The notes: generated by a model from the sequence alone, not told the origin. A DNA stretch of 53,126 nt from a virus (IMGVR_UViG_3300031953_000274:1-53126); one strand, 5' to 3'. Counted from the first letter of the stretch, positions 4,527-7,196 are shown. Numbers and translations: made by a program.

Positions 4527-5444
4527 ATGAAAAAAAACCAACTTGCTGGCGTTAATCTCAAGCGCCCGATTCGGCTGGCTAAGCGATTTCTGCCTAAAAA
4601 CCGATGGGGCGACCATATTGTCTCGCTGCTCAACTTCTTTCAGTTCCACGCTCGGCTGCCCAAGAAAGTCGGTGGCGACCTGAGCGATGCACTATTTTCG
4701 ATAAAAGCCTCTAATGAAATCCTTGACCCGCTCCGGGTGTTTGTGAGCGACAAGCACTATGTGAAGCTTTTTGTTAAGGCCACTATCGGCGACTTGTATA
4801 ACGTCCCGACAAACGCGGTGCTTGGCAGCTATGAAGAGGCTCTTTCGTATGAATACCCGAAAGACTGCGTGATCAAGCCCACCCATATGTCAGGCGAAGT
4901 TATGTTTCGGAAAAATGGGTCTGACCTTGATTTCACGAAAATAGCCCGCTGGTTTGAGTCGAACTATTACACCAGATATAGAGAGGCAAACTACAAGAGC
5001 CTCAAGCCGAAGCTCATCATTGAGCCGTACATATTTGGTGGCGAAAGCTGTGAAGATTACAAAATCTTCTGCGTTAATGGTGAGCCCCGGCTTATCTGGG
5101 TAGACTTTGATCGGCAGTCAGATCATCGCCGCAACTTGTACACGACAGACTGGGAGCTTCTGCCTGTTTCCGTGAATTTTGAGCAGGGTCACAACGTGCC
5201 GCGCCCCGTGAATCTGAAAGAAATGCTCCGGGTAGCCAGAGAATTGAGTTGTGATTTCTCATTTATCCGCGTCGATCTTTACTCCAGCGGGAAAGAGGTT
5301 TTGGTCGGTGAACTTACCAACTGCTCCGGCAACGCTAACGAAAAAATAATGCCGGCTGAAAATGCCTCAATAGTGACCGATCTGCTATTCGGTCCTGAGC
5401 GCGAAGGTGCAAGCTATGCCCATTTTCGGCCAGTCGCGGAATAG
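4527..5444 (+). CDS. TupA-like ATP-grasp amide ligase (surface polysaccharide modification family), moron
   Basis: Motifs DKHYVK, VIKPTHMSG, KPKLIIEPYI, DYKIFCVNGEP, DFDR, RPVNLKEM, FIRVDLY, GELT; oriented opposite to late operon. Confidence 0.85.
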   Translation: MKKNQLAGVNLKRPIRLAKRFLPKNRWGDHIVSLLNFFQFHARLPKKVGGDLSDALFSIKASNEILDPLRVFVSDKHYVKLFVKATIGDLYNVPTNAVLGSYEEALSYEYPKDCVIKPTHMSGEVMFRKNGSDLDFTKIARWFESNYYTRYREANYKSLKPKLIIEPYIFGGESCEDYKIFCVNGEPRLIWVDFDRQSDHRRNLYTTDWELLPVSVNFEQGHNVPRPVNLKEMLRVARELSCDFSFIRVDLYSSGKEVLVGELTNCSGNANEKIMPAENASIVTDLLFGPEREGASYAHFRPVAE

Positions 5445-6192: not shown

Positions 6193-6573
6193 TTAGTAGC
6201 TCCATACCCAAGGTCTGGGGCGATTTGGGGCGTCCGGCAAATCATCAAGATGAATAAACCGGCTCGTACCTTTCTGTTTGATGCCAACACCCGTAAAGCC
6301 GTGCTTCAGCGCCAGCCCTAGCAGCTTGTGCGCGTCATTCCCGCTGATCGCTATGTCACACGCATGGCCTGTGCTGTGGGCGCCAGGCTCTGCCTTGCGG
6401 GCTTCAATCGGGTGCGTCTTGTCGCGGTATCCGCTGCTAATAACCATCGCCTTTCCATAATCCGTGCGCAGCGCTTGCAGTCGATCCATAAAGCCAGCAT
6501 CCATGCGCAACTGCCCTGTGTGCTTGCAGCGAAACTCTGCGGCTGAAAAGTTCGGGTAGTTGTGCCAGTTCAT
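6193..6573 (-). CDS. Endolysin, peptidase M15 family
   Basis: NFSAAEFRCK, ISSGYR, AHSTGHACDI, FIHLD Zn-peptidase motifs; ATG 6573 with GAGG RBS. Confidence 0.88.
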   Translation of the reverse strand: MNWHNYPNFSAAEFRCKHTGQLRMDAGFMDRLQALRTDYGKAMVISSGYRDKTHPIEARKAEPGAHSTGHACDIAISGNDAHKLLGLALKHGFTGVGIKQKGTSRFIHLDDLPDAPNRPRPWVWSY

Positions 6574-6588
6574 GCTGACCTCGCGAAT

Positions 6589-6644
6589 AAAAAAAGCCGC
6601 TAACACACGACCGGGTAACTCCCAATCCAGAATTGCGCAGCGGC
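6589..6644 (-). terminator. Long hairpin plus U7 directly before the endolysin RBS
   Basis: GCCGCUG...UUAGCGGC-UUUUUUU on minus strand. Confidence 0.6.
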
Positions 6645-6686
6645 AAAAGTGCGGCGTAGCTGACCGCGTGGAGATGTTCGGGGCAT

Positions 6687-6721
6687 AAAAAAACCCGCAA
6701 TCCTGTTATGGGTGCGGGTTT
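6687..6721 (-). terminator. Rho-independent terminator
   Basis: AAACCCGCAC-CCAUAACAGGA-UUGCGGG-UUUUUUU. Confidence 0.75.
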
Positions 6722-6755
6722 ATGTAATAAGTGCTCGGCTCACCCTCCTACCAAA

Positions 6756-6835
6756 CTAGACCCAGGAGGCCACGCGACACCACCGTGTTTCGACTGATTC
6801 ACACAGTCTCGTCAGGCGCGTTAATATTGGTCTAG
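6756..6835 (-). ncRNA. Type I hammerhead ribozyme
   Basis: Minus strand: CGCGC-CUGACGA-GACUG(UGUGAAU)CAGUC-GAA-ACAC(GGUG)GUGU-C^GCGUG; core consensus, stems I-III and a GUC site all present; outer CUAGACC/GGUCUAG pairing. Confidence 0.9.
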
Positions 6836-7007
6836 CCCGGATGCCTACTTGCCGAGCTTTGGCATCGTATGCTCGTTTGTGATCTTTGCAATTGCCCTGC
6901 GGGCTTTAGGGGAAACTGATCTTTCAGGCTATTGCTTTACAAAGAGTTCGCCAGTCTCACCGTGAGCTATGGGATTGCGGGCCGCTCAACGTCGTATGGC
7001 CAGACAC

Positions 7008-7039
7008 AAAAACCCCGCAAGCGTTAACGTGCGGGGTTT
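7008..7039 (-). terminator. Rho-independent terminator
   Basis: AAACCCCGCAC-GUUAACGC-UUGCGGGG-UUUUU. Confidence 0.75.
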
Positions 7040-7196
7040 CCCAGTCTTTCCCGGTGTCAGACCTCCCCATGCCTGGTGGGGCACTCCCTAAGAGCCTTTC
7101 AGCCCAGTGCAGGTTCTCGAACCTTGCTCTTTCGCCAGATCTCGGTCAACGAGCTGGAATTGAACCAGCCTGCTCTTTTTGGCTTTCGCCAATTCT

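Follow-up and report, generated by a model that had tools for sequence, protein, structure and literature searches.

A predicted type I hammerhead ribozyme forms the middle of a larger pseudoknotted RNA found in phage late leaders and tRNA arrays

Introduction

Hammerhead ribozymes have been known from phages and prophages since 2011. The RNA described here lies on the minus strand of a 53,126-nt stretch of virus DNA (IMGVR_UViG_3300031953_000274:1-53126, hereafter called the window), where a complete hammerhead, predicted to be of type I, can be read directly from the sequence at 6820-6771. In the passages of Perreault et al. 2011 (PMC3088659) used for this comparison, many hammerheads were found near prophage genes and in phage intergenic regions, the processing of long transcripts was proposed as their role, a pseudoknot between loops I and II was described as stabilising the arrangement of stems I and II, and the hammerhead of phage PaP3 was tested and found to be active. 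The same passages mention no late leader, and word finds for Pseudomonas, lambda, terminase and Escherichia gave 0 occurrences each. The pseudoknot described there joins loops I and II, whereas the present RNA forms its pseudoknots with distal stem I and with its own two ends. PaP3 gave only a partial match of 13.4 bits (E 0.084) to R1, the covariance model of the present family introduced below, which was taken as noise, and our descriptor found no canonical type I motif in it.

The window copy resembles the type I hammerheads (RF00163) in its CUGANGA...GAAA core, its H17 cleavage site, its three stems, of which II and III are looped, and an internal joint in stem I about 5 bp from the core. 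It differs from them in that its score is below the family threshold, stem I runs into a three-way joint within a pseudoknot, a second pseudoknot closes the RNA, a periphery of ~100 nt is missing from the 45-position model, and half of the relatives have U.U at positions 10.1/11.1. By its core features the RNA is a predicted type I hammerhead, although it fails the Rfam score test. The RAGATH-1 hammerhead (RF03152) is similar in being a hammerhead variant, but the window (12.8 bits) and the relative L027 (25.2 bits) matched it only weakly, far under its gathering score of 56.3, and neither is a member. The Theta ribozymes, which resemble those of hepatitis delta virus (HDV), are likewise small self-cleaving ribozymes tied to phage tRNA genes in the passages used from Kienbeck et al. 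2024 (PMC10879173); they are of a different class with a different cleavage geometry and were proposed to trim tRNA 3' trailers, whereas the cut predicted here falls within a larger conserved RNA. A search of full-text literature returned no hammerhead in a lambdoid late leader and no such extended fold; supplements lay outside this search, and earlier alignments may contain the sequences.

Results

All elements of the RNA are on the minus strand and are written 5' to 3'. The hammerhead proper (6820-6771) begins with the 5' strand of stem I (CGCGC, 6820-6816), which pairs with GCGUG (6775-6771) over 5 bp including one G-U. The core CUGACGA (6815-6809) is followed by stem II, in which GACUG (6808-6804) and CAGUC (6796-6792) form 5 bp, including the canonical pair G10.1-C11.1, around the loop UGUGAAU; the core GAA (6791-6789) is then followed by stem III, where ACAC (6788-6785) and GUGU (6780-6777) form 4 bp, including A15.1-U16.1, around the loop GGUG. 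In hammerhead numbering, the predicted scissile bond at the GUC triplet is located 3' of C17 (6776) and 5' of G1.1 (6775). Loops cap stems II and III and the strand ends lie in stem I, which is the type I topology. Both strands of the window were scanned with a descriptor requiring at least 4, at least 4, and at least 3 pairs in stems I, II, and III, respectively; this site was the only one found, and none of 200 dinucleotide-preserving shuffles contained the motif. The initial annotation of the window had described this hammerhead and its coordinates, and the minus strand matches that description exactly as written. It had overlooked that the complete motif is the middle of a larger pseudoknotted RNA with a terminator of its own.

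When the window was compared by blastn with deposited phages, 6876-6732 matched unannotated intergenic DNA in three N4-like phages at ~75% identity. Further members were collected by motif scans of IMG/VR, of GTDB genomes, and of metagenomes, by blastn with a relative, and with the covariance model R1, which was built from 11 sequences including the window row and contained helices a, b, I, II, and III. A close group of 18 distinct homologues was obtained over 25 loci (loci are given L numbers), with R1 scores of 103-184 bits; the window itself matched at 6878-6725 with 136.5 bits, its own row being among the model-building sequences. Besides the window, the close group includes the N4-like phages L001-L003 and L031, Klebsiella phage 05F01 (L037), the enterobacterial lambda-like prophages L006, L007, L009, and L010, temperate phages of Pseudomonas, such as phita81A (L038) together with ten IMG/VR loci, and L044, L045, L048, and L050/L054. 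Counts out of 18 below refer to this group.

The catalytic core was strictly conserved. Eleven core nucleotides (C3, U4, G5, A6, G8, A9, G12, A13, A14, A15.1, and U16.1) were invariant in 18/18 distinct homologues. N7 was U in 16 sequences and C in 2, and H17, which is C6776 in the window, was A in 9, C in 4, U in 5, and G in 0. With no change at these core positions and no G at H17 in any of the 18, the pattern of constraint is that of active hammerheads. The 10.1/11.1 pair was more variable, with G-C in 9 sequences, as in the window, G-U in 1, and U.U in 8; changes at this pair lower hammerhead activity without abolishing it. In hammerheads, activity at low Mg2+ depends on a tertiary contact of the stem I region with the stem II region; here loop II (UGNRAU-like) and an A-rich joint 5 bp up stem I were both conserved, no pairing rule was found to connect them, and loop II of L044 was only 3 nt long. 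We consider it very probable, judging from sequence, that a functional hammerhead exists at 6820-6771.

The whole conserved structured RNA (6878-6733, ~145 nt; blastn conservation 6876-6732) comprises a 5' pseudoknot domain, the hammerhead, and a 3' pseudoknot domain, and no open reading frame of at least 40 amino acids (aa) overlaps 6701-6968 in the window. From 5' to 3' its strands follow one another in the order e, a, e', b, stem I, core, stem II, GAA, stem III, H17, stem I', d, b', d', a'. Helix e pairs GAUGCC (6866-6861) with GGCAUC (6845-6840), with 6 of 6 pairs formed, 100% of alignment cells paired, and two-sided changes at 2 pairs. Helix a pairs GCUCGGC (6857-6851) with GCCGAGC (6739-6733) at the 3' end of the RNA (99.2% of cells paired, two-sided changes at 6/7 pairs), and its 5' strand lies in the loop of helix e, so that e crosses a in an H-type pseudoknot. 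Helix b, the distal part of stem I, pairs CUAGACC (6835-6829) with GGUCUAG (6762-6756) (100% of cells, two-sided changes at 6/6 pairs) and can be extended through G-U pairs to 6840-6829 with 6762-6751. Its 3' strand lies in the loop of hairpin d, in which CCUCCU (6769-6764) pairs with AGGAGG (6749-6744) (97.2% of cells, two-sided changes at 5/6 pairs), and b crosses d in a second H-type pseudoknot. Between helix b and stem I runs the A-rich joining strand AAUAUUAA (6828-6821), which is AAYUAA-like in most homologues and may contact loop II. Helices I, b, and a span the predicted cleavage site, and the pseudoknots connect the RNA 5' of the cut with the RNA 3' of it.

Over the seven helices in the 18 sequences, 96.9% of 701 cells were paired, compared with 33-40% when the partners were slid by 1-3 columns. 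Two-sided changes were seen at 27 of the 39 pairs, where shuffles gave 16.8 +/- 1.7 and none of 500 came up to 27. At least 2 such pairs were present in each helix, and the three hammerhead stems contained 2, 4, and 2. The alignment was fitted to R1 and leans towards helices a, b, I, II, and III; helices e and d, which are outside the model, were equally supported. Earlier covariation counts, made with a plain MAFFT alignment and with an alignment that included two divergent sequences, agreed. The initial annotation had described a complete hammerhead of type I topology and had noted that CUAGACC can pair with GGUCUAG. This description held: the pairing extends stem I distally and covaries, the core is invariant, and compensatory changes in the copies of other phages support the three core stems and four peripheral helices.

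Comparison with Rfam gave a mixed answer. At the gathering score, the whole window had no hammerhead match and 0 hits of any kind, and at E<=10 the region 6500-7100 was matched only by terminator-like leader models and by no hammerhead. In a scan of 69 nt, the best family was indeed RF00163 (Hammerhead_1), with an alignment at 6820-6770 that covered all 45 model positions (1-45), but the score was 15.4 bits (E 0.16) with a gathering score of 34. By Rfam's own score criterion, the window copy is outside RF00163. Nineteen homologous loci compared with Rfam at the gathering score yielded tRNAs only. Two relatives in which stems I and III have the window's sequences reached 36.6 bits (L032, above 34) and 30.6 bits (L034) with RF00163; since L032 had escaped the faster gathering scan, such scans under-report hammerheads of this kind.

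Beyond the close group, four divergent sequences formed a second group: L005 (identical to L029), L008, L023 (an Ochrobactrum assembly), and L027. They keep the hammerhead, their helix sequences are unrelated to those of the close group, and at least helices b and d persist in 3/4. In L005 and L008 an automated helix finder recovered all peripheral helices at nearly the offsets of the close group, with different sequences, while for L023 and L027 the finder chose alternatives for some or all of e, a, and b, and equivalents were assigned by eye. MAFFT misaligned this group, and pair counts across groups therefore come from the separate alignment with two divergent sequences and from helix offsets. 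What a third group (L030, L032, and L034-L036) has in common with the others is limited to the hammerhead and the first hairpin on its 3' side; its 3' domain is another one. One of the 6 loci from the genome scan (L023) and 9 of the 10 from the metagenome scan were family members or third-group cousins. Fourteen candidates from relaxed motif scans (L011-L019, L021, L022, L024, L026, and L028) were dropped on inspection as chance matches in coding DNA, and blastn of the RNA against 5,426 complete E. coli genomes found none that carries it.

Some further observations were made on these loci. The stem I and stem III sequences of L030, L032, L034, L035, and L036 are those of the window copy (for example, L034:714-806 and L036:624-760), and their conserved 3' domain consists of a GCCCAAU/AUUGGG hairpin with a GGUUGUG loop and then AAGCC with further helices; Rfam sees the hammerhead part only. 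As far as the sequences indicate, this hammerhead with its 3' domain may be a separate, undescribed RNA. L025 resembles a different hammerhead. In L009, a weak partial R1 match on the plus strand (L009:8874-8936, 12.6 bits, E 0.55) covers the 5' domain only, including CCAAGU.GG, and is probably noise. In phage 05F01, the 31-aa hypothetical coding sequence deposited on the strand opposite the RNA (L037:2545-2640) is probably not a real gene but a miscall across a non-coding RNA.

The genomic addresses of the RNA were of a few recurrent kinds. Temperate phages carry the module in a late-operon leader, usually with a terminator-like hairpin after it. The gene directly upstream was Q-like in 4/4 enterobacterial temperate relatives and belonged to two different Q families, phrog_753 in L006 and L009 and phrog_127 in L007 and L010. 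Holin or endolysin genes follow the RNA in L006, L009, L010, and L055, the endolysin gene being the next one in L055; the next gene is the small terminase subunit gene (terS) in L023 and L044. A run of at least 5 T was present within 50 nt 3' of the RNA at 19/29 loci, with a visible hairpin before it in the window, L006, L007, L009, L010, the Pseudomonas group, and L044. No T-run follows the RNA in the N4-like phages, 05F01, L008, and L050. According to ARAGORN, a tRNA gene lies within 1 kb of the RNA at 16/29 loci: the last of ten tRNAs in Klebsiella phage 05F01 is followed after 4 nt by the RNA, and in L005 and L050 a tRNA follows 6-11 nt downstream.

L010 is lambda-like: from a point before the Q stop codon into the initial portion of the late leader that separates Q from S, its sequence is near-identical to that of phage lambda (NC_001416). 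The RNA and a different terminator hairpin there replace the lambda terminator hairpin, and identity resumes at the U-tract. The lambda elements concerned are named PR', 6S RNA, and tR', none of which is annotated in NC_001416. Lambda itself has no hammerhead, and the leader of the window is unrelated to that of lambda.

In the window, the gap of 680 nt between the upstream gene and the endolysin gene contains, by consensus matches only, one promoter-like site and three terminator-like hairpins. The promoter-like site (7287-7259, minus strand, as for all leader elements here) overlaps the end of the upstream gene, and the segment 7300-7243 around it is identical in the closest relative, L041. 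The first hairpin (7228-7197) and the second (7036-7008), with which the Rfam RsmY and rnk terminator stems align, are upstream of the RNA; no promoter-like site was found in the window between the second hairpin and the RNA. The third, an intrinsic-terminator-like hairpin (6718-6687; CCCGCA/UGCGGG followed by a U-tract), begins 14 nt past the RNA and aligns with Rfam leader and terminator models. The first gene downstream encodes an M15 peptidase endolysin (6606-6193, minus strand, with a likely ATG at 6573; PF08291, 1.9e-12; phrog_894, 3.7e-27), and the RNA lies ~200 nt upstream of this likely start. A 185-aa protein and a holin (5736-5449) are encoded after it, and the genes upstream encode a NinG-like protein, an HNH protein, and then, at the position of Q in lambdoid phages, a 167-aa protein. 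The RNA is within the leader of the lysis operon, whichever activator serves it. The initial annotation had placed the hammerhead in the late leader, upstream of the lysis genes, and its location in a non-coding leader before the M15 endolysin and the holin agrees with this; a promoter-like site followed by terminator-like hairpins is also consistent with a late leader, but Q-dependence of the promoter was not supported.

The gene at the Q position (7787-7284, minus strand) encodes a protein of no known family: no Pfam or PHROG family matched it, and membership of a Q family was not found. It has 32 homologues, of which 3 carry names, all "hypothetical protein" from Marinobacter. A confident structure model (pLDDT 81.8) gave weak fold matches led by extracytoplasmic function (ECF) sigma factors and sigma region 4; the best E was 0.24, none was <=0.001, and no Q structure was among the listed matches. 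The promoter had been described as Q-dependent, a view that these results do not support. From the model, the protein may be a sigma-like late activator rather than Q, and an activator of a non-Q kind is equally possible for this late promoter.

L041 encodes a 93% identical 167-aa protein and shares 7300-7243 and 7003-6925 with the window almost exactly. The latter block (minus strand) marks the point where homology stops, just before the RNA module: from 6925 onward, the two sequences diverge completely, the downstream gene of L041 is another one, and no hammerhead RNA is present. L041 also lacks a 195-nt insert (7242-7048). R1 found nothing in L041, L042, and L043, so that 3/3 relatives carrying the 167-aa gene have no copy of the RNA. 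The RNA therefore behaves as a mosaic, dispensable module, being absent from the closest relative and from 3/3 relatives with the same gene.

A second conserved structured RNA was noticed inside this insert (7192-7095, minus strand), in the same leader. It contains two T-arm-like hairpins (GCUGG-UUCAAUU-CCAGC and one of the GGUUCGA type) with a compensatory change in the first stem, and has homologues in Pseudomonas phage Touem01 (L004) and in four IMG/VR contigs (L059-L062). It received no tRNA call from ARAGORN and matched no convincing Rfam family, and the whole insert is missing from L041. A fourth terminator-like hairpin with a T-run (6612-6595, minus strand) was seen shortly before the probable start codon of the endolysin gene (ATG at 6573). 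Finally, a TupA-like ATP-grasp gene (4527-5444, plus strand; PF14305, 1.2e-39) occupies the other strand from the lysis genes, and beside it a gene on the minus strand (4324-2849) encodes a 491-aa protein with Ig-like and beta-helix matches and the look of a tail spike.

Discussion

We consider it about an even chance that the main role of this RNA is to process, by cutting, the late leader in which it is embedded. The RNA would be transcribed as part of the lysis-operon leader and would cleave itself between C6776 and G6775. Cleavage would then leave a 2',3'-cyclic phosphate at the 3' end of the upstream leader piece and a 5'-OH on G6775, the first nucleotide of the downstream RNA; this new 5' end would be clamped by helices I, b, and a, with hairpin d after it. 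Depending on the terminator, the downstream product would be either a short terminated RNA or, on read-through, the lysis mRNA. By the time the RNA is made, window transcripts have gone past two terminator-like hairpins; they probably continue into the endolysin gene, and cleavage would, for that reason, separate the late message from its leader. In Gram-negative bacteria, a structured 5'-OH end should be protected from 5'-end-dependent decay. The synthetic insulator RiboJ uses a hammerhead in the 5' leader in this way, removing promoter-derived sequence and leaving a 5'-OH followed by a hairpin. By analogy, the 5' end of the late message would probably be uncoupled from the promoter-proximal leader and protected; RiboJ is synthetic, and the analogy is functional only. 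Terminated transcripts, as would be expected in L010 without Q, would form a stable, nicked small RNA held together by ~19 bp.

Several observations weigh against such a processing role. In the window, the protein encoded ahead of the RNA cannot be recognised as a Q. Judging from L041 and the other relatives, the RNA is dispensable for late expression. The window copy is under the RF00163 gathering score and was unseen in the wider Rfam scans, and U.U occupies 10.1/11.1 in 8/18 homologues. Thermodynamic folding did not single out the hammerhead fold of the window copy: by nearest-neighbour energies the 50-nt hammerhead alone folds otherwise (-17.5 vs -13.5 kcal/mol), and the stability of the whole RNA is unremarkable (z = -1.14); in about 10 of 17 other folded copies, counted by eye with four rows obscured, the hammerhead fold was the minimum-energy fold or nearly so. 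The copies of the N4-like phages, 05F01, L005, L008, and L050 are located in or beside tRNA arrays, with no obvious mRNA leader, and the covarying periphery of ~100 nt exceeds the needs of a simple cutting site.

The last two points fit better with a free-standing RNA. According to this explanation, a stable phage RNA that acts in trans would occupy a tRNA slot and mature by self-cleavage, giving a nicked, two-piece molecule (2',3'-cyclic phosphate and 5'-OH) held by the pseudoknots, whose target might be host RNA repair or a tRNA-directed defence. A tRNA within 1 kb at 16/29 loci, the copy placed 4 nt past the ten-tRNA array of 05F01, the tRNAs 6-11 nt on in L005 and L050, and the mosaic, dispensable, cargo-gene-like distribution of the module are all in its favour, as is L010, where the RNA precedes the first terminator of the leader shared with lambda and short terminated transcripts would include it. 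However, with no promoter-like site between the second terminator and the RNA, the window copy would be made mainly on read-through into the lysis genes, and the link to RNA repair or defence is speculation; we regard this explanation as rather unlikely. A more specific form of it, to which we attach a smaller chance still, is a new class of stable phage RNA, self-nicking, doubly pseudoknotted and ~150 nt long, that travels with tRNA genes and in late-leader cargo slots, that matures through the hammerhead, and in which the clamped nick is the functional feature; it would then be more than a place where transcripts are cut. Such a nick might be a decoy or signal for host RNA repair or a tRNA-cleaving defence, or part of a reversible cleavage-ligation switch. 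It is quite improbable that the hammerhead-like core has become a structural scaffold, a protein- or polymerase-binding fold that no longer cleaves. The U.U pairs in 8/18, the 3-nt loop II of L044, the sub-threshold Rfam score, and the alternative fold that competes in the window copy would be understandable in such a scaffold, but all catalytic core positions are invariant and H17 is never G in 18/18, and the pair at 10.1/11.1 in the window is a canonical G-C.

The initial annotation had offered lysis timing as one possible role, which is taken here as a device specific to the lysis cassette. The position ~200 nt before the endolysin start, and before holin or endolysin genes in L006, L009, L010, and L055, would suit a timer, but the same RNA is found ahead of terminase genes (L023 and L044) and in the tRNA arrays of virulent phages, and the closest relative, which has another lysis gene, lacks it. 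Since, in addition, there is no recognisable Q here, we judge a lysis-specific timer to be very improbable. A terminator-like hairpin close to the 3' end of the RNA, as in the window, L006, L007, L009, L010, the Pseudomonas group, and L044, would also be expected of a cis-acting RNA antiterminator that, like put of HK022, lets polymerase pass the terminator that follows. Yet L006, L007, L009, and L010 already encode Q-like proteins, no T-run follows the copies of the N4-like phages, 05F01, L008, and L050, a self-cleaving core would cut the RNA away from the polymerase, and no Rfam antiterminator is similar, which makes this the least likely of the roles considered, and a highly improbable one. 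As for a chance resemblance to the hammerhead consensus, the low Rfam score of the window copy is the only point in its favour; it is refuted both by the shuffles, 0/200 of which contained even the relaxed motif, and by covarying conservation across phage families, and its probability is practically nil.

For the processing of late leaders, as for its alternatives, the family offers a fixed, covarying architecture of ~100 nt and a set of repeatable addresses: after two Q families, in a lambda-type leader, before terminase or lysis genes, and in tRNA arrays. The clamp formed by two pseudoknots across the predicted cut suggests that the products stay together, which would be unusual for a processing ribozyme. 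Because one member lies in an otherwise lambda-like late leader, the function of a phage hammerhead may become accessible to classical lambda genetics.

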